From Chthonomonadales bacterium (GTDB lineage: Bacteria; Armatimonadota; Chthonomonadetes; Chthonomonadales; CAJBBX01), in contig JBBIPC010000009.1 in the NCBI GenBank assembly GCA_037443035.1, forward strand, positions 81,984 through 124,297: DNA of 42,314 bases, in the 5' to 3' direction. The notes under the pieces are model-generated. The model searched no databases. It worked only from the letters and a program-made list of their open reading frames with translations, and was not told the DNA's origin. Position 1 is the first letter of the stretch. The number at the start of each line of letters is the position of its first letter. Position numbers and translations under genes: made by a program. Shown here piece by piece: positions 26,472-42,314 of the stretch.

Positions 26472-26828
26472 ATGTCCGATCTGCCGCAGCTCGACCGATT
26501 TGTCCGTGACGCAACACGTTTCGCCCTGCGAGCGTACCGGCAGGCGCGCCAGTGGCTGGAGCAGACGCTCACAGATGCGGGAGTGCTCGAGCCAAAGTCG
26601 CCGGCCATCTTGTGGGTGGATCGTTCGCCTGGCGTCGTAGCCGGCAAGCATGGCCGTGCCGGACGTGTGGATCCCGTGACGGGTGTGACGATCGAGACTG
26701 GCGATCGCGTGTGCGTCTGCTCCAGTTGCGATTCGACCTTCCTTGCCTCGACGTGGGAGGAAATACAACGCAGCGGCTCCTCGGCGTGTCCCATCTGTCA
26801 CGCACGCAGGAGCATCCACCCACTCTAG
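26472..26828 (+). CDS. Degenerate prokaryotic RING finger (Prok-RING-like) protein, candidate E3
   Basis: DPVTGVTIETGDRVCVCSSCDSTFLASTWEEIQRSGSSACPIC follows Prok-RING spacing (CPxC..GD..VxCxxC..xHxxCW...C); CSSC and CPIC are kept, the other ligand positions are D/T/L/T. First gene of the E1-Ubl-E2-JAB cluster. Confidence 0.6.
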   Translation: MSDLPQLDRFVRDATRFALRAYRQARQWLEQTLTDAGVLEPKSPAILWVDRSPGVVAGKHGRAGRVDPVTGVTIETGDRVCVCSSCDSTFLASTWEEIQRSGSSACPICHARRSIHPL

Positions 26829-26887
26829 CTTGCCAGCATCGGCGGACTGCGCGCGAGTATCACGAGAGGGAGTACAGCACAATCGTC

Positions 26888-28048
26888 ATGGAAACATCGT
26901 GGATGCCGCTGCAGCCAGACCGCTATGCCCGGCATCGCCTTATCGAGTGGTGGGATCAGGAAGCGCTAGCGCGGGCAGCCGTCATGGTCGTTGGATGTGG
27001 CGCGCTCGGCAGCGAGGTTGTGCGTTTGCTGGCACTGGTCGGGGTCGGGCGTGTTCTGGCCGTGGATCCCGATCGGATCGAACTGCACAATCTCACGCGT
27101 GGAGTGTTCTTCCGCGCCGGGGATGTGGGCCGATACAAGGCCGTCGTCACGGCGCGCCGAGCAGCTGCACTGAATCCCGATATGGCAATCGAGCCCATCG
27201 TGGGACGTTTGGAGACCCACGTTGGTCTCGGGCTCCTCCGCGAGATGTCAGTGCTCGCCTGCTGTGTGGACAGTATCGGCGCACGCGTGGCCGCCAACAG
27301 CATGTGCTATCGTGCTGGCGTGCCCTGGGTCAACGGCGGCATCTCGCCCACGGCAGGCGAGGTCACTGCCTTTGGCGCATCCAGTCCGCCCTGCTATGGC
27401 TGTACCGTGTCGGACGAAATGTGGGAACGAGAACAGCTCGTCCATACGTGCAGAGGATTTCGTGCCGCGGGCGGGGGACCGCCGGCAGCCACGACCGCAA
27501 CGGTCGCCTCTGTCATTGCCGCATTCCAGGTGCAGCAGATTCTCACCAGGCTCAGCCCTCACCACTCGGCGCCCATTTGCCTGGGCGACGGGCAGAAGGT
27601 CTATATCTCGCTGAGCCCGCCGGCCTTCATGGTGAGTACCATCGTGCCGTCGCCTACTTGCGGCTTCCATGAGGTCTGGACACCCGACACGGTGCTGTCG
27701 GAAGGTCCAGATGAACTCACCGTTCAGGACCTGCTGGGCGCCTGCGGCTGCCCTGGCGGCAGCTTGGAGCTCGAGCGCGAGATACTCCTGCACGTACGCT
27801 ACCCGTGTTGTGACCGACGAAGACACATGGGTAGACCGTTGTGGAGCTACACCGAAGAGGTCCTCCAATGCCCGACATGCGGCAGCGAGTCCGGAGAGGC
27901 TGTTACGCTCTCGTCCGTCCGTGGAGGGACGAAGTACAGCCACAGACCCCTCGCGAATCTGGGTGTGCCGAAACGAGATATACTGGCCATCCGTCCTTCA
28001 GATAAGGAATGCGTCCGCTACGTGGAGATCGGCCCGCGGACCATGTGA
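26888..28048 (+). CDS. E1-like ubiquitin-activating enzyme (ThiF family) with extended Cys-rich C-terminus
   Basis: DRYARH, VGCGALGSE (nucleotide binding), DPDRIELHNLTRG, CVDS...R, CYGC Zn pair, putative catalytic Cys in HTC (27449-27451), CGFH, then CC/CPTC Zn ribbon and LANLGVP tail. Start 26888 or 26903. Confidence 0.88.
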   Translation: METSWMPLQPDRYARHRLIEWWDQEALARAAVMVVGCGALGSEVVRLLALVGVGRVLAVDPDRIELHNLTRGVFFRAGDVGRYKAVVTARRAAALNPDMAIEPIVGRLETHVGLGLLREMSVLACCVDSIGARVAANSMCYRAGVPWVNGGISPTAGEVTAFGASSPPCYGCTVSDEMWEREQLVHTCRGFRAAGGGPPAATTATVASVIAAFQVQQILTRLSPHHSAPICLGDGQKVYISLSPPAFMVSTIVPSPTCGFHEVWTPDTVLSEGPDELTVQDLLGACGCPGGSLELEREILLHVRYPCCDRRRHMGRPLWSYTEEVLQCPTCGSESGEAVTLSSVRGGTKYSHRPLANLGVPKRDILAIRPSDKECVRYVEIGPRTM

Positions 28049-28121
28049 GGCTTATCACCCTGCCGACAACGAGAAGGCCATGCGGATTCTCACCCCGAAT
28101 ACTGGCCGAGGAGGTGCACCG

Positions 28122-28391
28122 ATGATGGAAAAGAACACAGTCAGTATCACGGTGGAGACGGTGGACCAGACACGCCGCGCTGACGTGAGTTTGTCACCCC
28201 ATACGAACGTTGGCGAAATCGTGCGATTGGGCAAGCAGAACTGGAAGCTGCCAGAGACGGATTACGCCCTCGTGAATGTTCGTACGGGCCAGCAGCTCTC
28301 GCCCAGCGGCACTCTCGCTCAGCAAGGCGTTCAGGAAGGAGATCGCCTGGTCTTGCAGCCCCTGTTCCATGCCGGAGCCGGCGTCCAGTGA
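28122..28391 (+). CDS. Ubiquitin-like beta-grasp protein (YukD/EsaB-like Ubl)
   Basis: Strong RBS GAGGAGGT; 89 aa with beta-grasp pattern ...LSPSGTLAQQGVQEGDRLVLQP and C-terminus FHAG-AGVQ; stop overlaps the E2 GTG start. Confidence 0.85.
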   Translation: MMEKNTVSITVETVDQTRRADVSLSPHTNVGEIVRLGKQNWKLPETDYALVNVRTGQQLSPSGTLAQQGVQEGDRLVLQPLFHAGAGVQ

Positions 28392-28915
28392 ATCGGATCA
28401 GGAACCAGCGTCTGTCCGCGGATCATCAGAAGCTCCTTGCGCTGGTGGCGTCCAACGGTGACCGGCTGGCGATCCAGTCCATTCAGGGCACCCCGCCGGA
28501 TCGTTACGAAGTCACGATCCGGTGCAAGAGCGTCGTTGCCTTTCGTAGCGGACGCCCCGTCTACGGCGAGAACCACATGGTTCGCATCTCTCTGCCGCCT
28601 GGATACCCCCTACAAGATCGCCCACGGGCCACCCTCCTGAGTCCGATTGCCCACCCCCACATCTTCTCCAACCGAGACGTGTGCATCGGATCCCGGGGTT
28701 CGGTGACCGAGTTCCTGGACGCCTTCGTCCGGCGGCTCTATGACATCCTCCGGTACGATCCTAGGTACCTCGACCCGAGGAGTCCAGCCAACCTCCCCGC
28801 CATGGAATGGGCGCAACTCAACAGGCATCTCTTCCCCCTCGATCCATGGGAGCTCCGTGCGCCAGGCATTGGCAAGCCGGAACCGCCACCCATCGTCTGG
28901 ATCAACCGCCAGTAG
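28388..28915 (+). CDS. UBC-fold E2 ubiquitin-conjugating enzyme
   Basis: RLSADHQKL N-terminal helix, LPPGYP, PIAHPHIFSNRDVCIG (HPN-like motif plus catalytic Cys at 28682-28684), SPANLPAMEW (UBC PAN motif). Confidence 0.9.
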   Translation: MNRIRNQRLSADHQKLLALVASNGDRLAIQSIQGTPPDRYEVTIRCKSVVAFRSGRPVYGENHMVRISLPPGYPLQDRPRATLLSPIAHPHIFSNRDVCIGSRGSVTEFLDAFVRRLYDILRYDPRYLDPRSPANLPAMEWAQLNRHLFPLDPWELRAPGIGKPEPPPIVWINRQ

Positions 28916-28930
28916 ATCAGGACTGCCTGC

Positions 28931-29656
28931 ATGGCCACGAGACGGACAACCAGCGTCGAGTTCGTTCGGTCATTGCTGAGCGACCAGGACTGCCGCGGTG
29001 GATTCGTGGTGGGCCTTGCCATTGGCGTACTCCTCGGCTTCCATCTGGTGCGCAAGCCCCGCCGGGAGGAGCCGCCCGTCGAGTGGACTGAAGGTCCGCC
29101 ACCCCAGCAGGAGCCACCCTCCAGACCGCCAATCGAGTGGACCGAGCGTTCCGACGTCATCAGCCTGACCCCAGGTCTGTCCATACCCCCTGGCTCGTAC
29201 CTCTGGCGAAGCTCCATGCTCGTCGCCATCACGCCAGAAGCGCAGGAGACTATGGACCGATATGCGAGCGGCGACACGCGAACCGAGCGCATGGGGTATC
29301 TCGTCGGCCGAGTCGGTTACACACAGATAGGATCGGAGCTTCTGACGATCGTGGAGCAGGCCGTACCCCTACCATCCTCGTACGCTACCGCCACCCATGT
29401 TGCCATCACCAGCGAGTCGCTGCCGGTACTCGCGGCTGCGGTACGGGAGTTCCCTCCAGGCGTGGCTGCGGTTGGCTGGTTCCACACCCACCCTGGGCTA
29501 GGCGTATTCCTGTCCGGCACAGATCATCATACGCAGCGTACATGTTTCCCGCATGATTGGCAAGTTGCCGTCGTTCTCGACCCTGTGGACCGTGCCATGG
29601 GGGTGTTCACGGGACCCAGTGGCGTCAGGGCGAAGCTGGTGGCCGTGCCGAGATGA
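28931..29656 (+). CDS. JAB/MPN+ (JAMM) metallo-isopeptidase with N-terminal hydrophobic helix
   Basis: ERMGYLVG (catalytic Glu) and GWFHTHPGLGVFLSGTD (HxH-x7-S-x2-D, Rpn11/CSN5-like), VVLDP; N-terminal GGFVVGLAIGVLLGFHLV. Confidence 0.9.
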   Translation: MATRRTTSVEFVRSLLSDQDCRGGFVVGLAIGVLLGFHLVRKPRREEPPVEWTEGPPPQQEPPSRPPIEWTERSDVISLTPGLSIPPGSYLWRSSMLVAITPEAQETMDRYASGDTRTERMGYLVGRVGYTQIGSELLTIVEQAVPLPSSYATATHVAITSESLPVLAAAVREFPPGVAAVGWFHTHPGLGVFLSGTDHHTQRTCFPHDWQVAVVLDPVDRAMGVFTGPSGVRAKLVAVPR

Positions 29657-31459: not shown

Positions 31460-32680
31460 ATGACGGATCGTGATATCCTCCGCTGCCTAGCCTCCAGATG
31501 GATGGAGCTGGCAACCCAGCCGGTGATGGCCGAGCGCATACGGCTGTGGACCGCGCTCAAGGACCTGCGCGCCGAGCGACCCATGGTCCTCTTCGAGACA
31601 TGGTCGCTCCTAGGCTACGTGTTAGATGAGGAGCTCCAGTGCGAGAATCCGGCCAACCGCTGGATGGAATGGCACATGCGGTCCATCATCCGACATGCCG
31701 AGGAGGTTGGCGACGATATCGTCGTCGAACCCATCTGGCGCGTAGGATGGCACATCGAGGGTACAGACTACGGCGTGCCGCTCACCGCGAGGCATGCCGA
31801 GGACGTCCTCGGGGATCATGTGGCGTATCACTACGATCATCCCATTCGTACCACAGAAGACATCGGTAGGCTGAGACCCCGAACATGGACGGTGGACCGA
31901 GAAGCCACCTACCGCGAAGTCGAGCGCCTCGACGGTCTGTTCGGCGACATTCTGCCTGTACGCCTCCACGGCACGACGGCGCTGCATGCCGGCCTCACGG
32001 GAGACCTCTTCCGCCTCATCGGCAACGACAACCTCATGACCTGGGTCGTGGACCATCCCGACGTCATTCACGGGATCATGGAATACCTCCGCGATGATCG
32101 CCTGACTTATTACCGGTGGCTGGAGAGCGAGAACCTGCTGGGACTGAACAACGACTCCACGCTCGTGGGGTCCGGTAGTCCAGGGTACACAACCGCTCTA
32201 CCGCAACCGGACTACGACGGTCGTGTCCGCCTGAAGGACGTCTGGGTCTGGATGGAATCCCAGGAATGCGCAGGTATCTCGCCGCGCATGTTCGCCGAGA
32301 TGTTTCTTCCGTACATGGCCGAGGTGGCCGCGCTATTCGGGCTGGTGTACTACGGCTGCTGCGAAGCTGTCCATGACCGCTGGGACGCTATCATTCAGGC
32401 CATGCCGCATGTCCGGGCTGTGTCGGTGTCACCGTGGTGCCACATGGAGGAGATTGCAGCGAAGCTCGGGCGCGCCGTCGTCTTCAGCCGGAAACCCCGG
32501 CCCGCGCCGATCAGTGGTGACGAGCCGGACTGGGACGCCTTGCGGCAAGATGCCGAAGCGACGCTCGAAGCTGCGCGCGGATGCAACCTGGAGATCATCT
32601 ACCGAGACGTCTACCGCATCGGAAACGACCGGAGCCGGTTGCGGCGCTGGACAGACATGGCCCGGAGCCTCATGGACTAA
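31460..32680 (+). CDS. URO-D/methyltransferase-like TIM-barrel hypothetical protein
   Basis: 406 aa; ESQE, ISPRMFAEMFLPY, YYGCCE, VSVSPW, SRKP motifs. Confidence 0.7.
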   Translation: MTDRDILRCLASRWMELATQPVMAERIRLWTALKDLRAERPMVLFETWSLLGYVLDEELQCENPANRWMEWHMRSIIRHAEEVGDDIVVEPIWRVGWHIEGTDYGVPLTARHAEDVLGDHVAYHYDHPIRTTEDIGRLRPRTWTVDREATYREVERLDGLFGDILPVRLHGTTALHAGLTGDLFRLIGNDNLMTWVVDHPDVIHGIMEYLRDDRLTYYRWLESENLLGLNNDSTLVGSGSPGYTTALPQPDYDGRVRLKDVWVWMESQECAGISPRMFAEMFLPYMAEVAALFGLVYYGCCEAVHDRWDAIIQAMPHVRAVSVSPWCHMEEIAAKLGRAVVFSRKPRPAPISGDEPDWDALRQDAEATLEAARGCNLEIIYRDVYRIGNDRSRLRRWTDMARSLMD

Positions 32681-32707: not shown

Positions 32708-32767
32708 TCCGACCTGTCCGACCTGTCCGACCTGTCCGACCTGTCTGACCTGTCCGACCTGTCTGAC
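32708..32767. repeat. 9-bp tandem repeat (TCCGACCTG) x6 plus a partial copy
   Basis: Units at 32708, 32717, 32726, 32735, 32744 (TCTGACCTG variant), 32753, and partial TCTGAC at 32762; lies between convergent genes. Confidence 0.95.
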
Positions 32768-32793: not shown

Positions 32794-34503
32794 TCACGTC
32801 GCGCCGTCTTCCGCCTCCAGCGCCGCACGCTTGGCTCCGAGATCTGCAAGAGCGGCGCTGACAGCAGATTCCCCCTCGGCCTGGAGCGCTCTGGCTCGCT
32901 CCATACCCCGCTGGGCCGCCTCGAGCACCTCCTTGAGGACGTAACGGATCTCGCTCTCGAGCGCCATACGGCTGTCCTGCAGTCTCTGTTTGACGCTGTT
33001 CTCGACCCGAATCGCGTTGACTTCCAGCAAGCGCCGCAGAAAGGCGGCGGCGTCCCGCTGGATGGCCCCCATGGTGAGAGATACGGGGAGGATGGCCTCG
33101 ATAAACCACTGCAGGAGCGGTACGAGACCCGCCGGTGACGCCACATTGTGGAAATCGGCGAACGTGAACCGTCTCCCGCGGCGTGTTGCGGCGTCGCCGC
33201 CGACTTGCTCCGGCAGCGGAACCGAGGTCCAGTTCTCCGAGCTTCGGAGCCGCTGGAGGAGATCGTTCACCATGTCCGTGAAACGCTCCGTCACGTGTCG
33301 GTAGGCTTCGGCAGCTACTCTCTCGCTCTGGCCGAGCCATGGAGTCACCCGTTGTCGAGCGGTCCGCTGGGCTTCGCCGAAGGCATAGGCGCGCAGCGCC
33401 GGCCCGAACCGAATACGGCTGTCACGCACCGTCTGGATCAGTTCCTTCTCGGCCTGGGGAATGGCCTGCTGGAGGAACTCGGTACGCCGTCGAGCGAACT
33501 GACTGCCGAGACGCTGCAGTTCGGCATCGAAGAGAGGTCCGATCTCCCACAGTGCCCGGGAAGCTTCCTCCTGAGCGTCCTTGAGCAGTGTCAGGCGCCT
33601 GGCGGTCTCTTCGAGTGGACGCCGCAGGGCTGCCTCTTCCTCAGCCAGTATGTTGCGCAATCGGGCCGCGAGGCGATGCAATCCCCTGTGAATCGCCGAC
33701 TCCACGAGCACTTCGCCCGACTCCTCCGCCAGAGTGCGCAAGTGCTCCATGAGCGCGGACCAGTCCCGCGTGGCCTGGCCAGTGGTTAGACGCTCCAATG
33801 CGCTGACGCGGAATACTCTTTCCACGGGTCTCCCGAGTTTCTGCGAGAGAACCCGTTCGGCAAATGCCGCTGCTTCTTCGCACTCTTCGTCCGAGACCCG
33901 ATCGGCCTTATTCATCACGAAGACGAAGGTCTCGACTTGGCGCGCGATCTCCAGAATGAGCGCGGTTTCTTCGCCGGATATGGGCGGGTCTGCTCCGAAG
34001 ACGGCTAGCGCAGCGTCAATGTGAGGCACGAACTCGCGAGTGGCCTCACTGTTGGCCTCGAACACCGACCCGAGACCCGGAGTGTCTACGAAACACAGTC
34101 CCGATGCTAGGAGCGGGCTCGGCAAGAAGACCTCCACGGCGAGAACGCCTTTCGCATTCCCTGGGTTGCGCTCCTCCGAGACGTAATCCGGCAGGTCTTC
34201 CCGGGCAATCTCTAGCCACGGCATCCCGGATTGACGCAGGCGAATCATTGCGCGGTCGCCATGACGCAGAATGGTCACGACAGACGTCACGGGAACGGTC
34301 CCCGTCGGAAGGATCCTATCGCCGACAAGGGCGTTGAGCAGCGTGGACTTCCCACGTTTGAACTGCCCGACACAGGCCACGTAGAATCTGCCCTCAGCCG
34401 CGCGCTGGGCAAGGGAGTGCGCTTCGTCGGCAACCCCCGCGGCCCCGATCTCGTGCGCTAGACGTTCAAGGTGCTGCAGGCGACTTAGCGCATCCGCGCT
34501 CAT
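32794..34503 (-). CDS. Bacterial dynamin-like GTPase
   Basis: G1 GQFKRGKST, G2 PVTS, G3 DTPG, G4 NKAD; long helical C-terminal stalk with a hydrophobic segment (GLVPLLQWFIEAILPV). Confidence 0.88.
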   Translation of the reverse strand: MSADALSRLQHLERLAHEIGAAGVADEAHSLAQRAAEGRFYVACVGQFKRGKSTLLNALVGDRILPTGTVPVTSVVTILRHGDRAMIRLRQSGMPWLEIAREDLPDYVSEERNPGNAKGVLAVEVFLPSPLLASGLCFVDTPGLGSVFEANSEATREFVPHIDAALAVFGADPPISGEETALILEIARQVETFVFVMNKADRVSDEECEEAAAFAERVLSQKLGRPVERVFRVSALERLTTGQATRDWSALMEHLRTLAEESGEVLVESAIHRGLHRLAARLRNILAEEEAALRRPLEETARRLTLLKDAQEEASRALWEIGPLFDAELQRLGSQFARRRTEFLQQAIPQAEKELIQTVRDSRIRFGPALRAYAFGEAQRTARQRVTPWLGQSERVAAEAYRHVTERFTDMVNDLLQRLRSSENWTSVPLPEQVGGDAATRRGRRFTFADFHNVASPAGLVPLLQWFIEAILPVSLTMGAIQRDAAAFLRRLLEVNAIRVENSVKQRLQDSRMALESEIRYVLKEVLEAAQRGMERARALQAEGESAVSAALADLGAKRAALEAEDGAT

Positions 34504-34958
34504 TCCCCAGCACTCCCACCTTTCTTCGGTGCTGCACGATAGCCGTCCAGAAGGCGGCGAATCGCATGGGTTTCCTGACGCATGGCGTCCGCGAGTGCAG
34601 CCATGCGCTCCCGGTCCGGAGACGTGATGGGGCCGTATTGCTGGACCATGCGGTCGGGATGGAGATCATCCACGATCTCTTCCTCGAGACTACGCAGGAG
34701 CACCGATAACCAGAAGAGCGTGGCGCTCCGGCCGTCGGCACGTTCCTGTTCCGCCAAGCGGTCGGGGCACTCGCACCACACGGCGTCTCGAAGCAGGCTC
34801 ACGAGGCGGGCGAGGTGCACCTCCACTTGCTGCCATTCGTCATGGTCCAGCGGCGTCAGCGCCGCCCCGCTGACGGGACTTCGACCGTCCCTGCCCGCAC
34901 GCTCCATACGGCTGGCCATTTCCTGGACAGCGTTCAGCGCTGCAAACAGGTGGTTCAC
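34500..34958 (-). CDS. Hypothetical helical protein translationally coupled to the dynamin-like gene
   Basis: GTG at 34958 with GGAAGGA RBS, 152 aa; ATGA overlap with the dynamin start. Confidence 0.65.
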   Translation of the reverse strand: MNHLFAALNAVQEMASRMERAGRDGRSPVSGAALTPLDHDEWQQVEVHLARLVSLLRDAVWCECPDRLAEQERADGRSATLFWLSVLLRSLEEEIVDDLHPDRMVQQYGPITSPDRERMAALADAMRQETHAIRRLLDGYRAAPKKGGSAGE

Positions 34959-34969
34959 ATGTCCTTCCG

Positions 34970-35692
34970 TCACCTTGCATGCCCCCCATTGCGGCGGTAG
35001 GTGATGCGTCCTCCGAACTTGAGCAGGGCTCGGATCCACGCATCGCTCTCACGGCCCATGGGTTCGTGTCGGTACCTAGCGTCGGACTTGCGCACGAACT
35101 CGGCCAGCTCTGCCCAGAGTCGCATCAGTGCCGTGCGCTCGTGCTCCACGAGGAATAGGCGCGTCTCGCCGGATGTCCGTTCCAGCACCGCCATCAGATG
35201 CCGAAGGCAGAGACCTGCAGTAGCTTCGAACGCGGCGCGTAACTCCATATCGCGTAGTGCCTCCGCCATGGCGCCGGCGTAGAGATCCATATCCTCGTCT
35301 TCTGCAACACAGAGCGGACACGTTCCCTGGCTAAGGTCCGCCGACGAGCCCGATGAAGTCGAGAGTCTCCGCAACGCCTCTCCGGTCACGTCTTGGTACA
35401 TGATCGAGACCGCCAGCGGGTTACCCCGTCGCAAAACAGCCTCGGCATGTCTGGCGCAGAATCCCAGTGAGGCCCGGAGTTGTGCTCTGAATTCTGGGTC
35501 ATTCACACCCTCACGGAACAGGTAAGCCAAGCGCCGCACACTTGCCTCGGTCTGCAAGCGGCACAGTGGACATCCCTCCAGTGCGATGGCCTCCCGCAGC
35601 TCATGATAGAGTGTGTGACGGGGGACACTCGGTCGGCTACTTCGCGACGCAGCCTGCCCATGTAGAGGGCCGGCAACAGCGATGGACCGCAT
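34970..35692 (-). CDS. DUF6062-like protein (duplicated CPxC ... GxCxxH Zn-binding module)
   Basis: GCPLC...VNDPEFR...GFCARH and CPLC...GLCLRH, FVRKSDARY. Start uncertain (35692 or 35791). Confidence 0.75.
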   Translation of the reverse strand: MRSIAVAGPLHGQAASRSSRPSVPRHTLYHELREAIALEGCPLCRLQTEASVRRLAYLFREGVNDPEFRAQLRASLGFCARHAEAVLRRGNPLAVSIMYQDVTGEALRRLSTSSGSSADLSQGTCPLCVAEDEDMDLYAGAMAEALRDMELRAAFEATAGLCLRHLMAVLERTSGETRLFLVEHERTALMRLWAELAEFVRKSDARYRHEPMGRESDAWIRALLKFGGRITYRRNGGHAR

Positions 35693-35794
35693 GTTGAACC
35701 GATGCTGTATCCACCGGAGACACGCTGCCGTCGTGTCCCGGAGGTTCGGATGCGCTAGCCTTTCGATCCGTGCCTTCACGTTCGCTAACATGGC

Positions 35795-35838
35795 AACAAG
35801 AAACCCCCGCCGGCGCGGTATTCGCGCTCGTCGGGGGT
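35795..35838 (-). terminator. Intrinsic terminator in the riboswitch leader
   Basis: Minus strand ACCCCCGACGAGCGCG-AATAC-CGCGCCGGCGGGGGT followed by TTCTTGTT. Confidence 0.65.
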
Positions 35839-35878
35839 GCTGTCTTGGTTCTGGCTCCCTCGTGATGCACGAACACCA

Positions 35879-35946
35879 CAAGGAGCCATCAGCTCACGTG
35901 GAGCGGTTCAGACGGCCTGGCCGTCTCGGCGGTCTCCATCGCCTAT
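35879..35946 (-). ncRNA. Fluoride riboswitch (crcB motif)
   Basis: Minus strand ATAGGCGATGGAGACCGCC-[hairpin]-GAACCGCTCCACGTGAGCTGATGGCTCCT: P1 GGCG/CGCC, pseudoknot GGAG/CTCC, GCTC/GAGC stem, conserved GCTGATG; matches the known crcB consensus. Confidence 0.88.
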
Positions 35947-35954
35947 TCGGGGGG

Positions 35955-35960
35955 AGTATA
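35955..35960 (-). promoter_or_regulatory. -10 element for the riboswitch-led transcript
   Basis: TATACT on the minus strand, 8 nt upstream of the aptamer 5' end. Confidence 0.55.
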
Positions 35961-36017
35961 CCCCACCGCCACGCCTAGTGACATGGCGACACTGCTAAGA
36001 AACGAGGCGACGAGTGC

Positions 36018-37751
36018 CTATTCCTTCGCTCCGCCACTCTCTGCGGAAGCGGAGGCAGGAGTCTGCTGGAACTGCTGGGAAAACGCATCGAGAGCTTTCC
36101 GTAAAGTGGCGTCGGTGTCTTCAGAGAGCTCCTTGGTCTTACGGATCGTTTCCGCGATCTCCGGATAGTGCTGCGCCAGGTAGGCATGCATCTCTCGCTC
36201 GAAACGCTGCACGTCCTCGACCGGTATCGGATCTAGGTAGCCGTTGCTTCCTGCGAAGATGGAGATCACCTGATTCTCGACCGGCATGGGTTGGTACTGG
36301 GGCTGGCACAGGAGCTGGACCATCCGCATACCTCGGTGCAACTGCGCCTGCGTGGCCTTGTCGAGGTCCGATGCGAACTGCGCGAACGCCTGGACTTCTC
36401 GATACTGGGCAAGTTCCAGGCGAAGCCTTCCTGCAACGCTACGGAGCGCCTTTACCTGGGCGGCACCGCCCACGCGGGACACCGACGTTCCCACATTGAT
36501 GGCAGGTCGAACTCCGGAGAAGAACAGATCGCTCTCCAGGAAGATCTGGCCATCGGTAATGGAGATGACGTTCGTCGGGATGTAGGCGGAAATGTCGCCT
36601 GCTTGGGTCTCGATGATGGGCAGTGCGGTCAAGCTGCCGCCGGTCTTCGGCACCTTCCGGATCTCCAGATTGGCAGCATCCGGCATGGCAGCGAGTTCTT
36701 TCTCGGCTTCCCGGCGTCCTCTCGGCCCCAGATAGGTCTTTCCGTTCGACCCCTCCGCAGTGTCTGCCGGCGCCATCTTCGGCACTATGATCCAGTCCTC
36801 CCGTATCTTCGCTGCGCGCTCCAAGAGCCGACTGTGGAGGTAGAAAACGTCTCCGGGGAACGCCTCTCTTCCAGGTGGACGCCGGAGAAGCAGGGAAAGC
36901 TGGCGATACGCGACGGCATGTTTCGAGAGGTCGTCGTAGACACAAAGGGCGTGCAGCCCCTGATCACGGAAAAACTCGCCGATGGTGACGCCGCTGTAGG
37001 GTGCCAGGTAGAGCATCGGCGCAGGGTCCGATGCCGTCGCACTGACGACGACGGTGTAATCCATGGCACCGTGCTGTTCGAGGGTCCGTACCACGTTGGC
37101 GACTGTGGACTGTTTCTGACCAATGGCGACGTAGACACAGATGACGCCCATGCCCTTCTGATTGATGATGGTATCCACAGCAACCGCCGTCTTACCTGTG
37201 CCGCGATCGCCAATGATCAGCTCACGCTGACCACGTCCGATGGGAACCATGGAGTCGATGGCCTTGAGGCCGGTCTGTAGCGGTTCCGATACAGGCTGGC
37301 GCTCGATGACGCCCGGCGCCCGTGCTTCGATATAGCGGCGCTCTTCGGCAACGATGGGGCCCTTCCCATCGATCGGGTCGCCCACGGCGTTCACCACGCG
37401 CCCCACCATGGCCGGCCCCACAGGAATGGAAACGACGTTGCCGGTACGGCGCACCGTCGTCCCTTCGCGGATGCCCATATCTGGCCCCAGAATGACGGCG
37501 CCCACGTTATCCTCGTCGAGGTTGAGGGCGATCGCACGGATGATGTGCCCGTCCGTGTCCGTTATGGGGTTGCCGCGTTCGTCGAGGAACTCCAGCATCT
37601 CCTGAACCATGCAGTCCTGCAGGCCGTAGATGCGCGCGATGCCATCGCCCACCTGCAACACAGTACCGACGCCGATCTCCTCGACCTTGCGCTCGAACGC
37701 CTGAAGCTCCTGCTCCAGGATAGATGTTATCTCTTCCGGTCTGATTGCCAC
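36018..37751 (-). CDS. atpA: F0F1 ATP synthase subunit alpha
   Basis: AIRPEEI N-terminus (GTG 37751), [15 protein letters not shown] Walker [36 protein letters not shown]. Confidence 0.97.
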
Positions 37752-37800
37752 CAGTCTATACCCCTTGCTTCCTCCGGGATGGCATGGACGCCGATGCCCT

Positions 37801-38379
37801 TCACCCGCCTCCACTACCCTGTTCGGCCATGGCAGACTCCAGTAACATGGTTTCTCGCATGGCTTCCAGCGCCCCACGCACACTGCCGTCCCAGACGGTG
37901 TCCCCCACTCGGACCGCAATCCCGCCGAGCATCGCCGGCTCCACCCGCACATGCAGGAGAACCGGACGGTTCAGCCGTTGCCGTATTGCCTCCTCCAACC
38001 GAACCAGCTGGGCATCGCTGAGTGGCGCAGCGGAGGTGACGAACGCACGCGCCACACCTGCGGCCTCATCTGCACCACGTGTGTACTCCTCGTAGATCGC
38101 TGGCAGGATGTCGGTACGCCGCTTGGCGATGAGCAGGTCCATGAAGCGTCGCGTAATTTCGTCCGCGCCCGTAAGCGCTCTCTCGACCATGCGCCGCTTC
38201 TCTGCCGACGGCACGAGCGGACTATCCATCACGCGGTGGAACGCCGGACTGTCGCGACGCGCCGTGATGAGTGCCTCCATGTCATGCCGAACAGCTTCGA
38301 CCCGATCCATCCGCTCAGCGGTGTGAAGCAGGGCCAGTGCATAGCGGCGTGCTATTCTGGCAGATCCTAGCGTGGTCAT
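37801..38379 (-). CDS. atpH: ATP synthase subunit delta
   Basis: [33 protein letters not shown]; operon position. Confidence 0.93.
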
Positions 38380-38903
38380 CGGGCTTCCCCGAACTCCCTG
38401 ACGAAGGCATCCAGGAGACTAGCCTGCCTACTTTCCGTCAGCGTCCGCGCCGCGGCGTATGAGGCGGCCTCGATGACATCCTCCGCGAACTCGATGCGGA
38501 GGTGGGCCATGGCCCGTTCCCAATCGCGGCGTGCTTCCGATCGTGCATGTGCGATGATGGCCTCCGCGTGCTGGCGTGCTTCCGATTCGATGTGCGAACG
38601 CAACTCGGCAGCACTGGCCACTGCCTCATCGAGACGTCGCTGGGTCTCTTCGGCGATGTGATCCAGCTTGTCCCGGTAGTCATCCCGTATCGCCTCGGCG
38701 TCGGCTAGAGCCTGTCGCACCTGGTCCAGGGAGTCCGCTACGGTTGTGGTCCGTTCCTCGAGCTTCGCTCGGATGGCCGGGACAATCAACTTCACGACCA
38801 AAGCCGCAAGGGCCAGAAAACCAGCAGTACGCACAACGATCCACTGGAAGTCGGATATGTCCGCGGGATGCTCGAGAAGCCAAGGAACCACGTACGGATC
38901 CAT
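38376..38903 (-). CDS. atpF: ATP synthase F0 subunit b
   Basis: N-terminal TM helix followed by a long Ala/Glu-rich coiled coil; lies immediately upstream of atpH. Confidence 0.8.
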   Translation of the reverse strand: MDPYVVPWLLEHPADISDFQWIVVRTAGFLALAALVVKLIVPAIRAKLEERTTTVADSLDQVRQALADAEAIRDDYRDKLDHIAEETQRRLDEAVASAAELRSHIESEARQHAEAIIAHARSEARRDWERAMAHLRIEFAEDVIEAASYAAARTLTESRQASLLDAFVREFGEAR

Positions 38904-38905
38904 AC

Positions 38906-39412
38906 TCAGTTCCTCGCATCCCGGACGCGAATGTACTCGCGGATCAGTTGGCGCTGGTTCTCGTCCGGGGGTTCGCCCTGAGCCTTGCCGAGGGCCTCCA
39001 TAGCCGCACGCTCCAGGCGTTCCTCCGCAGCCGCTCTTCCAGCCAGTCGGTCGGCCTCGGTTCTCTCCTGTCCTTCGCGTGCAATTCGCTCTGCTTCCGC
39101 CCGCGCTTCAGCGATGACAGCTTCGCGCGCCCGCTGTGCGGCCTGGAGCGTTGCTTGGATGCGTGACCGTGCGTCAGCTTCGATGGCTGCCACGCGTTCT
39201 TCGTACTCGGCTCGGAGACGCTCCATCTCTGCCCGCGTGGTCTCGACGGTTCCGTAGGCGTCCTTGATCCGCTTGTTCCTCTGGTCCAGATGGCGCATGA
39301 TGGGCTTCCAGAAGATGCGATCCATGAGGAAGAGGAGAATCAGGAACGCACCTGCATTGAGCAGGAGCACGCGGAAGTCAATGGCCAGACTCTCGCGGAT
39401 CGTGTCGAGCAT
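38906..39412 (-). CDS. atpF: ATP synthase F0 subunit b/b' (second copy)
   Basis: FLILLFLMDRIFWKPIMRHLDQR signature plus coiled coil; follows atpE. Confidence 0.85.
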   Translation of the reverse strand: MLDTIRESLAIDFRVLLLNAGAFLILLFLMDRIFWKPIMRHLDQRNKRIKDAYGTVETTRAEMERLRAEYEERVAAIEADARSRIQATLQAAQRAREAVIAEARAEAERIAREGQERTEADRLAGRAAAEERLERAAMEALGKAQGEPPDENQRQLIREYIRVRDARN

Positions 39413-39437
39413 GGGCTGGATTAGGCGAAGCCTGCTC

Positions 39438-39719
39438 CTACTTGATGGCGGCGCTCTTCAGCGCCTCGACGACCGCATTCGGATCGGCGGGGAGCTGCGC
39501 CTTGAGCATGAACAGGAACACGAAGGTGAAGATGACCAGCGACTCGATAAAGGCGAGGCCAAGGATCATGGCCGTCTGGATACGTCCAATCGCCTCCGGT
39601 TGCCGGGCCATACCTTCGAGAGCCGACGCCGCTGCCCTGCCCTGGGCGGTTGCACCGCCCAGCACGGCGATGGGTAGCCCTAACCCGACGGCAAGGGCCA
39701 GCATGGCGAAGTAGATCAT
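39438..39719 (-). CDS. atpE: ATP synthase F0 subunit c
   Basis: Two TM helices, ARQPE loop, ion-binding Glu in FIESL; AAGGAGG RBS. Confidence 0.95.
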   Translation of the reverse strand: MIYFAMLALAVGLGLPIAVLGGATAQGRAAASALEGMARQPEAIGRIQTAMILGLAFIESLVIFTFVFLFMLKAQLPADPNAVVEALKSAAIK

Positions 39720-39770
39720 CGTGTGAGCCTCCTTAGGCGGTGAATCTGTTGGCGGGACAGCGTGCTTGCG

Positions 39771-40562
39771 CTAGGATGATGCATGGGCCGCCTCCTCGCC
39801 GGAGTGTTCCTCGTGATGCGACTGCAGAGACAGATAGATACATGTGAGAAGCGTGAAAACGAGGGCCTGAACGAAGGTGGTGAGTAACGCTAGAACGAGT
39901 ACAGGGAACTGTACTGGTATGAACGGCAACTTCGGCAGAATCGCAACCCCTAATGTCGCCAGCACGACGATGACTGTGTCCTCACCAAAGATATTGCCGA
40001 AAAGACGCATCGCGAGAGTGAACGGCTTCACCATCTCGCTGATGATCTCGATGGGAAACAGGAGGATGCCCGCTGCAGGGATCGGTCCCCAGAAGTGCGC
40101 CAGGTAGCCCTTCAGTCCTCGCTCTCGAATGCCCACGTACTGGACGTAGAAGAAGACTACGAGGCCCAGCGCGAGCGTAGTGCTGAGGTTCGCTGTCGGA
40201 GAATGAAAGACGGGCAGAAGCCCCCAGAGGTTGCTGACGTAGATGAACAGGAAGAGCGTACCCACCAAGGGAACGTACTTCTCGCCGCCTGGTCCGATGA
40301 CCCCCCGGGTGAAGCCGATGAACGCTTCGACGATAGCTTCGCCAAGGTTCTGCATGCCGCGAGGGATGTCCGTCAGCTTCCGCGATGCCCAGATCCCGAA
40401 CGCGAGAATCACCAGAACCACCAAGATCGCATTGCTGAACAGAAGCCACGGGCTCGGAATGTCACCGAGCTTGTAGGGATGGTGGCCACCATGCCCCTGC
40501 GCCGCATGGGCGCCCACGGGAACCAATTCGTGACCTGTTTCGCTATGTTTCCCCTCGGGCAC
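39771..40562 (-). CDS. atpB: ATP synthase F0 subunit a
   Basis: PRGMQNLGE, SPTANL, KPFTLAMRLFGNI (essential Arg), QALVFTLLT. Confidence 0.95.
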   Translation of the reverse strand: MPEGKHSETGHELVPVGAHAAQGHGGHHPYKLGDIPSPWLLFSNAILVVLVILAFGIWASRKLTDIPRGMQNLGEAIVEAFIGFTRGVIGPGGEKYVPLVGTLFLFIYVSNLWGLLPVFHSPTANLSTTLALGLVVFFYVQYVGIRERGLKGYLAHFWGPIPAAGILLFPIEIISEMVKPFTLAMRLFGNIFGEDTVIVVLATLGVAILPKLPFIPVQFPVLVLALLTTFVQALVFTLLTCIYLSLQSHHEEHSGEEAAHASS

Positions 40563-40610
40563 GAAGCCCCTCCCTATCCTCTTGGTGATCCTGAGATGGG
40601 TCGCTGCGGA

Positions 40611-41039
40611 CTATTTCCTGGTATCCGGCGCGCCCGAAGTCGCGACCCTCGCACCTGGTTTCTCGTTCGCCGTCGTCGGGCCCACAAGCATGCGACCCAG
40701 GGTCTTCAGCACGATAACGGCTGGCACGAGCCCGACTCCGGCAAAGACTGCAAGGCCCTCGATCGCTGGAGCGGACAGAGCCAGATACAGTACGACCCCG
40801 AAAACCGGCAGCTTCGCCAACAAGGCGAAACCCAACAGCCACACGCGCGGGCGTTCAGGCGATACCAACCTCGGGACCAACCACACTAGACTCAACAGGC
40901 TGAACAAGCTCAGCGCACTGCCCACCGCGAGTCCAGCGGCGATATCGGGCCTTCCGCCGACTGTGAACAAGAACACGAACAAAGCCGCCAGCCAAGACCC
41001 AGTACGAACTACACGTCGCGGCAGATCCCGTTCGTCCAT
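40611..41039 (-). CDS. atpI: ATP synthase subunit I-like membrane protein
   Basis: Four hydrophobic helices; position upstream of atpB. Confidence 0.65.
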   Translation of the reverse strand: MDERDLPRRVVRTGSWLAALFVFLFTVGGRPDIAAGLAVGSALSLFSLLSLVWLVPRLVSPERPRVWLLGFALLAKLPVFGVVLYLALSAPAIEGLAVFAGVGLVPAVIVLKTLGRMLVGPTTANEKPGARVATSGAPDTRK

Positions 41040-41042
41040 TGT

Positions 41043-41390
41043 TTACTTGCCCAGTCGCGACGCCATACCGAGCATATTCCGCACACCGACGATGAGCCCG
41101 AGTATCGCCCCACCTAACGTGAAACCGTACGCCTGGCCGCCAAGCCGGCTGTCGAGCCACGCGCCTATCAATGTTAGCACAAGGACCGGCGTAATCAGCG
41201 CGATGGGCAGGCTATAGGCAACACCCATCTGCCGATAATCCTCGACGTTCGGCGACGTCACGGGCCGCTGTACTTGCGGCAGCTGCACCTTAACTTCGGG
41301 TGGCTCGGGAAGCGTAATGCCGGGATGCTCGCATGCTTCGGCATTCGTATCGGACGTGCGGTCCTGAGGCTCGTCCTTGGAGCTACGCAT
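41043..41390 (-). CDS. AtpZ/AtpI family protein
   Basis: LIGAWLDSRLG...GAILGLIVG pattern typical of AtpZ; start uncertain (41390). Confidence 0.7.
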   Translation of the reverse strand: MRSSKDEPQDRTSDTNAEACEHPGITLPEPPEVKVQLPQVQRPVTSPNVEDYRQMGVAYSLPIALITPVLVLTLIGAWLDSRLGGQAYGFTLGGAILGLIVGVRNMLGMASRLGK

Positions 41391-41421
41391 ACCTATCCCA
41401 GGAACATGGCACCTAAGAGCG

Positions 41422-42314
41422 CTAGCTATCGAGAGCGAATCGCTTGTGCAGTATCTGAACTGCACGATCCACCTCGGTCTCCGGAATGAGGCATGATACG
41501 GACATGACCGAATCCGCGACCTGGTGCACCGGAATGCCCGCGGCGTGGAGCGTCTCGAAGATGGTCGCCAGGACGCCTGGGATCAGCCGGTGTCCTCCAG
41601 CCACCACCGATACCATCGTCACGTTCTCGTAGACCGACCCTGGGATGTCCACGACGTCTATGAACTGCTCCACCTTGCGCAGGAGCGGGCGCTGTGCACG
41701 GTAGGCCAGATCCGGCTTGTCGCCGAACTGGAATCTAAAGATATAGAAGGTGCTCGCCGGCTGAGCGTTCGGATTGCTGCCCACAGGGACCACCATGCCG
41801 TCGAGCAGGTCCCTGGCGACAACGTACATATCCCTCGTCACGGCGAAGGACATGGTGGTGGGGCTGAAGGAAGTGAGGAAAATGCTCACGCCAGCCTCGG
41901 CCATGAGCCTGTAGACTTCCTGCTCGATGATAGGCTTGTGGACCTCGTTCGGTATCTCTAGATGGAAGAAGACGCCTCGGCCAGAATGGGCAACGCCCGT
42001 GACGCGGCGTCGGACCTCCTCCGACGCCTCATGCTCGGGGATGATTCGCGTACCCCTGGCATCGGAAAAGGTTGACTTGACCCACAGCTCGATACCGTGA
42101 TCCATGGCGATTTCGGCGGCGCGCGGATGAACCACCTTAGCACCCAGGTGCGTGATCTCGGCCAGCTCCGCGTAGGTACACACGTCCAGCGTACGTGCGT
42201 GCGGAACCATATCAGGGTCGGCGGTCTTGACGCCGTCCACGTCTGTGTAGATCTCGACCCGAGCAGCCTTCAGGGCGGCGCCCAGGGCTGCTGCAGTGGT
42301 GTCGCTGCCGCCTC
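41422..42314 (-). CDS. Aspartate kinase (partial, 5' end outside window)
   Basis: GSDTTAAALGAAL, EIYTDVDGVKTADP, GAKVVHPRA, C-terminal ACT-like domains ending LHKRF. Confidence 0.92.
   Translation of the reverse strand, partial: GGSDTTAAALGAALKAARVEIYTDVDGVKTADPDMVPHARTLDVCTYAELAEITHLGAKVVHPRAAEIAMDHGIELWVKSTFSDARGTRIIPEHEASEEVRRRVTGVAHSGRGVFFHLEIPNEVHKPIIEQEVYRLMAEAGVSIFLTSFSPTTMSFAVTRDMYVVARDLLDGMVVPVGSNPNAQPASTFYIFRFQFGDKPDLAYRAQRPLLRKVEQFIDVVDIPGSVYENVTMVSVVAGGHRLIPGVLATIFETLHAAGIPVHQVADSVMSVSCLIPETEVDRAVQILHKRFALDS

Follow-up and report, generated by a model that had tools for sequence, protein, structure and literature searches.

What does a fluoride riboswitch control when the genes behind it include no fluoride exporter? 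The question is raised by a 42,314-nucleotide stretch of the genome of a Chthonomonadales bacterium of the phylum Armatimonadota (assembly GCA_037443035.1, contig JBBIPC010000009.1, positions 81,984 to 124,297; hereafter the window), in which an aptamer of the fluoride (crcB) class lies upstream of genes for a DUF6062 protein, a small helical protein (hereafter ORF2), and a dynamin-like GTPase. Fluc and CLC-F were themselves recognized as fluoride exporters through their riboswitch context. In this study, we report that the window dynamin belongs to a clade that recurs behind fluoride riboswitches in several phyla, and we weigh what such a dynamin might do. The aptamer and the genes are as follows:

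35873..35952 (core 35943-35881), minus strand: fluoride riboswitch aptamer, RF01734, Infernal 35.2 bits, E 3.2e-6
34970..35791, minus strand: DUF6062 protein, 273 aa from the ATG at 35791, PF19538, 74 bits against a cut-off of 27
34500..34973, minus strand: ORF2, 157-aa all-helical protein, no Pfam match
32794..34503, minus strand: dynamin-like GTPase, 569 aa, Dynamin_N PF00350, 83.7 bits against a cut-off of 27

The aptamer was the sole Rfam match in the window; it spanned the full length of the model and exceeded the gathering score of 34, so that the Infernal check proposed in the initial annotation was passed. The three genes downstream are coupled via 4-nt stop/start overlaps and all frames are intact, which agrees with the tight linkage described there. 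A Pfam scan found no Fluc/CrcB or CLC-F gene in the unit, also as described.

Recurrence of the riboswitch-dynamin link

Relatives of the window dynamin were collected from GTDB, and the best 80 of the 282 loci carrying one were fetched with 6 kb of sequence; aptamer matches of at least 28 bits were kept (95 of 105 rows). A switch lay upstream of the dynamin on the same strand in 65 of the 80 loci and anywhere in 69, and a switch or a Fluc gene was found within 6 kb in 75, leaving five loci with neither. The switch-led dynamins came from Armatimonadota, Acidobacteriota, Gemmatimonadota, Methylomirabilota, Myxococcota, and Candidatus Binatota.

Two further samples served as controls. In an evenly drawn set of 141 Acidobacteriota genomes, scored for switches with the Rfam model alone, dynamins matching above 150 bits were assigned to the clade and those matching at 60 to 82 bits were classed as other; one unpublished genome (G148) was counted in the tallies only. 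Among the clade matches, 25 of 28 were switch-led (22 of 25 genomes), and in 12 cases the switch lay no more than 250 nt away; none of the 13 other dynamins was switch-led. Of the three misses, the first starts at a contig edge (G235), the second belongs to a Fluc operon that the contig end interrupts (G177), and the third is a true miss (G183). Conversely, 22 of the 46 Acidobacteriota genomes with a fluoride switch place a clade dynamin behind one. Across 121 genomes of the host phylum, Armatimonadota, seven of 31 Dynamin_N matches were switch-led; all seven fell into one clade together with DUF6062 fusions, and 18 other phylum dynamins fell outside it. In a quick tree built from 61 GTPase domains, with the window dynamin and two fusions joined by 25 of the 80 loci and 18 from the phylum, all switch-led dynamins fell in one 43-row clade (SH-aLRT 90), although the outsiders include long branches; seven rows within this clade carry a switch-less label, and several of these seven come from cut loci. 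The link between this dynamin clade and the fluoride switch is not due to chance. Judged from gene context, regulation by fluoride at the level of the dynamin family is very probable, and the suggestion of a fluoride-stress module thus gains strong support from a cross-phylum comparison with controls.

The two small genes showed a broader distribution. DUF6062 was switch-led in 18 of the 28 phylum genomes that have it; only five of these 18 also had a switch-led dynamin and 13 did not. Nine more DUF6062 loci had no switch within about 5 kb, and one further locus lies at a contig edge. By this distribution, DUF6062 and ORF2 are not obligate partners of the dynamin. In four of the nine switch-less loci (L107, L108, L109, and L113), DUF6062 comes directly after a gene whose product has a hydrophobic N-terminus and matches nothing in Pfam above cut-off. 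Five loci (L029, L034, L035, L067, and L079) carry a third dynamin subclade with a HEAT protein on the opposite strand; several of these third-subclade dynamins lie behind a second switch, divergent or convergent.

Proteins of the operon

The G1 to G4 motifs of the window dynamin are intact, and the P-loop, Thr, DTPG, and NKxD residues are invariant in 53 sequences. Its best sequence matches in PDB were 6j72 (IniA), 5owv (Cj-DLP2), and 2j68 (BDLP1), with E values of about 1e-15 to 1e-13 over the GTPase part only. Residues ~455-490 are predicted to form a moderately hydrophobic tip, with no clear transmembrane helix in the sequence. NCBIfam scores of 60.6 of 1600 bits for DynA, 25.6 of 1146 for CrfC, and 17.9 of 325 for LeoA lie far below the cut-offs, which by sequence places the protein outside these subfamilies. 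The closest dynamins are 57-62% identical and mostly labelled Chthonomonadales, and a plasmid search gave no match at E 1e-30. The window genome (G000; 100% complete, 61 contigs) contains no second Dynamin_N match, and 103 of the 121 phylum genomes have none at E 1e-8; a dedicated stress protein therefore fits better than a housekeeping back-up copy. A role in defence found no support, as PADLOC gave generic LeoA/LeoBC dynamin hits only.

DUF6062 most likely starts at ATG 35791 or 35692, with the protein core from ~35632; a 303-aa frame from a TTG in the leader was ruled out because it would run through the switch. The protein consists of two internal repeats, each with a CxxC...CxxH pattern, whose halves align with an hhalign probability of 97.8. 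Across 40 sequences the only invariant columns are six Cys and two His, that is, two Cys3-His sets, and DUF6062 is predicted from them to hold two metal ions, likely zinc. Its model is confident and all-helical (pLDDT 94.5, pTM 0.86). Foldseek returned no match at E 0.001, and the best structural match had a Z of 5.0 and an rmsd of 3.1 over 54 residues, which does not imply a new fold. A metagenome scan with DUF6062 gave no confirmed relative, the nearest Atlas clusters are all DUF6062, and no function was found for the family in the published literature. In P0009 and P0010, DUF6062 forms the C-terminal part of a fusion with a clade dynamin. The earlier idea of a Zn-binding partner is thus half supported: the two invariant Cys3-His sets make it a candidate metal-binding protein, and the two fusions favour a partnership; exclusive partnership is contradicted by the switch-led genomes lacking a switch-led dynamin and by the switch-less loci.

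For ORF2, the start is most likely GTG 34973, and homologues start at the same place. The protein shares ancestry with the N-terminal domain of a second dynamin, 700 aa in length (hhalign 95.3, E 2e-8; 0.4 for DUF6062 as a control), which is present in full in 25 of the 80 related loci. The domains of both small genes therefore occur elsewhere fused to dynamins, and we infer from the homology that ORF2 may be the left-over docking domain of a lost second dynamin. Its model (pTM 0.54) gave generic helical-hairpin matches only, the best with a Z of 8.2 and an rmsd of 2.7 over 68 residues, and again a new fold is not implied; at this model quality, no sequence or fold match to the assembly domain of Cj-DLP1 was detected. 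A word-index protein search found only ORF2 itself, and Atlas leads all stayed below 0.9. In a three-chain complex prediction with the dynamin and DUF6062, ORF2 as partner scored 0.00, on an input unlike those of the calibration.

Fluoride exporters and neighbouring genes

Neighbours in the 80 loci included Fluc (52), enolase (20), an antiporter (17), Usp (15), and pyrophosphatase (11), which are known fluoride-regulon genes according to passages of PMC5533749 and PMC11139923. Other neighbours in the same loci (L006-L085) were DUF190 (60 of 80), an AAA/STAND ATPase (37), and a zinc-ribbon/HEAT protein (12), and more rarely a metallophosphoesterase (8), a cyclopropane synthase (7), and a cytidylate-kinase-like protein (3). 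The lipid-modifying cyclopropane synthase would fit a theme of membrane permeability. Since the dynamin is usually found beside Fluc, it does not replace the exporter, and on this gene context it is an accessory. A unit standing in for a missing exporter, as the initial annotation had implied, is thus not what the related loci show, and in the window genome, too, another fluoride switch leads a transporter.

That genome gave no match to Fluc. Its sole CLC gene (L003:1507-2538, contig C21) matches the model only from position 97, without the N-terminal selectivity signatures, and looks internally deleted. The second fluoride riboswitch, at 45.3 bits, leads a CPA2-family antiporter (L005:131-1504, contig C8). 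Its 19 homologues in the phylum all lie behind a switch. Fluc is absent from 15 of their genomes but present in 61 of the remaining 102, and 13 of the 19 showed neither Fluc nor CLC, with the reservation that kin are not independent and seven of the 19 belong to one family. The switch-led CPA2 protein is a candidate third fluoride exporter. Na+/H+ antiporters are known targets of the switch and are read as serving pH homeostasis in the relevant section of PMC11139923.

The riboswitch leader

The leader contains the following further elements, of which H1, the antiterminator helix, and the terminator-like hairpin are the three helices predicted by folding of growing transcripts:

35955..35984, minus strand: sigma70-like promoter (-35 at 35984-35979, -10 at 35960-35955; 9/12 consensus positions)
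~35948, minus strand: transcription start predicted from the promoter position
35852..35888, minus strand: hairpin H1, about -25 kcal/mol by folding, predicted for the fluoride-free state
35814..35880, minus strand: antiterminator helix of 14 bp (35880-35867 with 35827-35814), -22 kcal/mol by folding
35795..35838, minus strand: intrinsic-terminator-like hairpin and imperfect U tract (G+C hairpin 35838-35803, U-rich tract 35803-35795)

The promoter scan returned two sigma70-like sites against 1.0 expected by chance and is weak by itself. The site lies 11 nt ahead of the aptamer. Hexamers resembling a -10 box were found ahead of 56 of 117 related aptamers, compared with 87 of 1160 control stretches; the promoter seen earlier is supported by this placement and this enrichment. 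The aptamer was previously called canonical. It is a fluoride aptamer but departs from the canonical form: P1 and P3 are separated by an inserted 17-nt hairpin (35926-35910), and the second-last pair of the pseudoknot is an A.G mismatch. These two features account for its low score. A hairpin between P1 and P3 is a variable element, drawn in the original crcB motif figure in the supplement of PMC2864571. The P1, P3, and pseudoknot pairs are present in the RF01734 alignment, with 96.6% of cells paired over 21 sequences. A purine.G at the mismatched pair occurred in 15 of the 46 parseable aptamers (of 128), all from the host phylum, and this subtype is likely functional because two of its members (L006 and L105) lead Fluc directly. 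Fluoride is predicted to bind the window aptamer and to turn the operon on.

The terminator reported earlier is borne out as a U-tailed hairpin, although a pattern scan for terminators made no call at 35838-35795 and the hairpin, which starts about 42 nt downstream of the aptamer, does not overlap the aptamer 3′ end as is common, though not universal, in RF01734. Family relatives such as L158 have a similar, one-step terminator. Folding suggests how the two may communicate. H1, which is followed by no U tract, would capture the 3′ pseudoknot strand of the aptamer and mask the antiterminator strand, and the 14-bp helix is predicted to form only with the aptamer folded. The strength of this helix was matched by 2/2000 and 6/2000 shuffles, for a helix chosen post hoc in one genome only, and it includes G.U pairs that are usable only on the transcribed strand. 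The relay design, which rests on one genome, looks derived. Taken together, the switch probably works properly in this copy, as far as folding models tell, but the copy could be stuck off with its terminator lying outside the aptamer.

Genomic surroundings

An ATP synthase operon lies upstream (window 36018-41465, minus strand) and ends at atpA; atpG and atpD-atpC are on contig C13, and atpA carries an internal insertion in all five genomes checked. A functional tie to this operon was rejected. A same-genus genome (G279; 96% complete) has another cassette after atpA, which by eye from translations is a LacI-like regulator and a prepilin-type gene (L178, contig C68), and atpA and atpD are not linked to each other in the relatives checked either; the adjacency is incidental. 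The same-genus genome showed no switch and no dynamin. Between the dynamin stop and a convergent gene, a 9-bp unit is present in six tandem copies (window 32708-32761); the genome contains six arrays of this type, and one like them follows the switch in L105. The convergent gene (31460-32680, plus strand) encodes 406 aa with no Pfam or NCBIfam match and is 68% identical to a same-genus gene. Farther away (26552-29656, plus strand) are consecutive genes for ThiF (E1-like), YukD-type ubiquitin-like, and JAB protease proteins, which we take to resemble a bacterial ubiquitin-like conjugation cluster.

Discussion

We propose, with a probability of roughly one in two, that the window contains a fluoride-switched operon whose clade dynamin remodels or seals the inner membrane alongside transporters and not in their place. 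Without fluoride, H1 would take the 3′ strand of the aptamer and the terminator would form. With fluoride, the aptamer would hold, and the freed strand 35880-35867 would pair with the inner stem of the terminator ahead of synthesis of its 3′ arm, so that the polymerase could read through. The induced dynamin would then bind the inner membrane and remodel or seal it, and sealing would limit the HF and proton leak caused by fluoride. DUF6062 would be a two-metal helical accessory serving the wider fluoride regulon and not the dynamin alone. Membrane action, in line with the membrane remodelling put forward earlier, is suggested by family precedent (DynA, IniA, and Cj-DLP1/2) and by the intact GTPase motifs, and membrane protection as the job of the dynamin stands, by this analogy, at about even odds. 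According to sections of PMC11139923, fluoride gets into the cell as HF, with the result that the cytoplasm turns acidic and the proton-motive force falls, and passages of PMC6104087 state that DynA-type proteins were proposed to repair inner-membrane pores or lesions. In its reference list, PMC6104087 cites a title that ties IniA to an efflux pump.

Several observations weigh against this proposal. The evidence for the function of the operon consists of sequence and folding, and it fits other membrane jobs as well as sealing. In the 80-locus set, Acidobacteriota predominate, kin are not independent, and 21 aptamers are seeds of the model (R1). Most characterized bacterial dynamins need a partner dynamin, as passages of PMC6104087 state, and the window genome lacks the second dynamin gene with which family members are usually paired. 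Homologues of DUF6062 and ORF2 are often switch-led in genomes without a clade dynamin. The aptamer exceeds its cut-off by a margin of 1.2 bits only. With the aptamer locked, folding still favours the full terminator at equilibrium once its 3′ arm is free; read-through thus needs a kinetic trap, because the terminator is then the stabler fold. Of 14 family leaders folded, most showed a one-step terminator, and the relay appeared only in the window genome. Finally, parts of a preprint (bioRxiv 10.64898/2026.06.17.733018) report that a strong terminator set behind the fluoride aptamer by a long spacer leaves the switch "always OFF", and that central antiterminators invert the logic of a switch.

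These points bear differently on the other explanations. That the family link is real but that this copy is decaying, an insertion having uncoupled the aptamer from a terminator that now lies outside it, with the operon off or leaky, would explain the equilibrium fold and the low aptamer score, and it is compatible with an operon that is shortened in comparison with relatives such as L007 and is absent from the same-genus genome. We nevertheless regard decay as quite improbable: the three frames are intact and coupled, the dynamin keeps its 57-62% identity to relatives, the same aptamer subtype leads Fluc elsewhere, and the 14-bp helix exceeds most shuffles with G.U pairs of use only in RNA from this strand. 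The genes might instead have landed behind a stray switch without any relation to fluoride, given their patchy distribution and the nine switch-less DUF6062 loci. The context counts largely refute this reading, which we consider extremely improbable, as the link spans at least six phyla, several gene orders, and several subclades 26-60% identical, the dynamin is often the first gene, and other dynamins were switch-led in 0 of 13 and 0 of 24 cases.

The remaining explanations accept the response to fluoride and differ on what the dynamin does. The dynamin and its accessories might help transporters by clustering, inserting, turning over, or energizing Fluc or CPA2, as IniA is reported to act with an efflux pump. 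Fluc beside the dynamin in most loci, DUF190, the usual neighbour of Fluc, in even more, and the switch-led CPA2 in 13 of the 18 genomes with switch-led DUF6062 would all follow. Yet the dynamin often comes first after a switch of its own (within 250 nt in 12 of 28 cases), two genomes with a switch-led dynamin (G044, 93% complete, and G101, 87% complete) showed no Fluc, CLC, or CPA2 of this kind, and a clade dynamin was present in only two of the 65 Fluc genomes of the phylum sample, which makes a transporter helper unlikely. Alternatively, the GTPase may itself be a target of metal fluoride and be overexpressed to sustain an ordinary function, like enolase and pyrophosphatase, which share these operons and are explained in this way in a section of PMC11139923. 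It is well established that GDP with AlFx or MgFx mimics the transition state of GTPases. Such a mimic was used on Cj-DLP1/2, although the crystals showed no AlF4 density, according to passages of PMC6104087. We find such compensation hard to credit, because the clade is found almost only behind switches, the window genome has no constitutive copy, and most genomes, that of the same genus included, lack the clade. We also raise, tentatively and as an unlikely extension, a third fluoride defence, independent of Fluc and CLC and composed of the clade dynamin, DUF6062, the ORF2 domain, and CPA2, in which CPA2 would export fluoride, the dynamin, possibly triggered directly by GDP-metal-fluoride, would remodel the membrane, and a relay-type switch, of which we found no description, would run this copy. 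The inner-membrane reading remains the one we prefer.

The window unit can be set beside known systems. The Enterobacter cloacae FRM operon ppaC-uspA-eno-gpmA-crcB-orf5249, as given in part of PMC5533749, has the same aptamer class, and relatives of the window operon share genes for Fluc, enolase, pyrophosphatase, Usp, and the Na+/H+ antiporter with the known fluoride regulon. In contrast, the window unit has neither an exporter nor a fluoride-inhibited housekeeping enzyme and has instead a dynamin and two uncharacterized proteins, and its terminator, unlike that of the usual fluoride riboswitch, does not overlap the aptamer. Tug-of-war or central-antiterminator riboswitches, described in parts of the same preprint, likewise have a terminator that shares no aptamer sequence, but their spacer is shorter than 5 nt, against about 42 nt here, and the switch here is predicted to use a double relay (anti-antiterminator and antiterminator) that would restore ON logic. 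The window dynamin shares Dynamin_N G1 to G4 with IniA of M. tuberculosis (6j72 is so named), DLP1/DLP2 of C. jejuni, BDLP1 of Nostoc, and DynA of B. subtilis, and judging from its sequence it may also share their long helical C-terminal part and hydrophobic tip; it differs from known bacterial dynamins in being single in its genome and under a fluoride switch. The second dynamin of related loci carries an extra N-terminal domain, as Cj-DLP1 does in the passages of PMC6104087. To what is known of DUF6062, the comparison adds a repeated Cys3-His site in two copies, a frequent position behind fluoride switches in the phylum, and the two proteins in which it is fused to a clade dynamin.

Term searches of the main texts of PMC5533749, PMC11139923, PMC11777429, PMC7266159, and PMC2864571 returned no "dynamin", and the passages of the PMC2864571 supplements, among which the table of genes downstream of crcB was not included, make no mention of one. 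A link between dynamin and the fluoride riboswitch was not found in the literature searched; the gene tables of Baker 2012, outside that scope, may list the domain. Neither the switch class nor the protein family is new in itself; the link between them is absent from the literature covered here.

NaF would be a cheap and well-defined inducer for a member of the bacterial dynamins, about whose physiological triggers little is understood, and the operon gives a first functional handle on DUF6062. Because 13 of the 19 genomes with a switch-led CPA2 showed neither Fluc nor CLC, the question of a third exporter is directly testable. Further mechanisms of fluoride tolerance are named as an open need for engineering defluorinating microbes in Box 1 of a review (PMC11139923).

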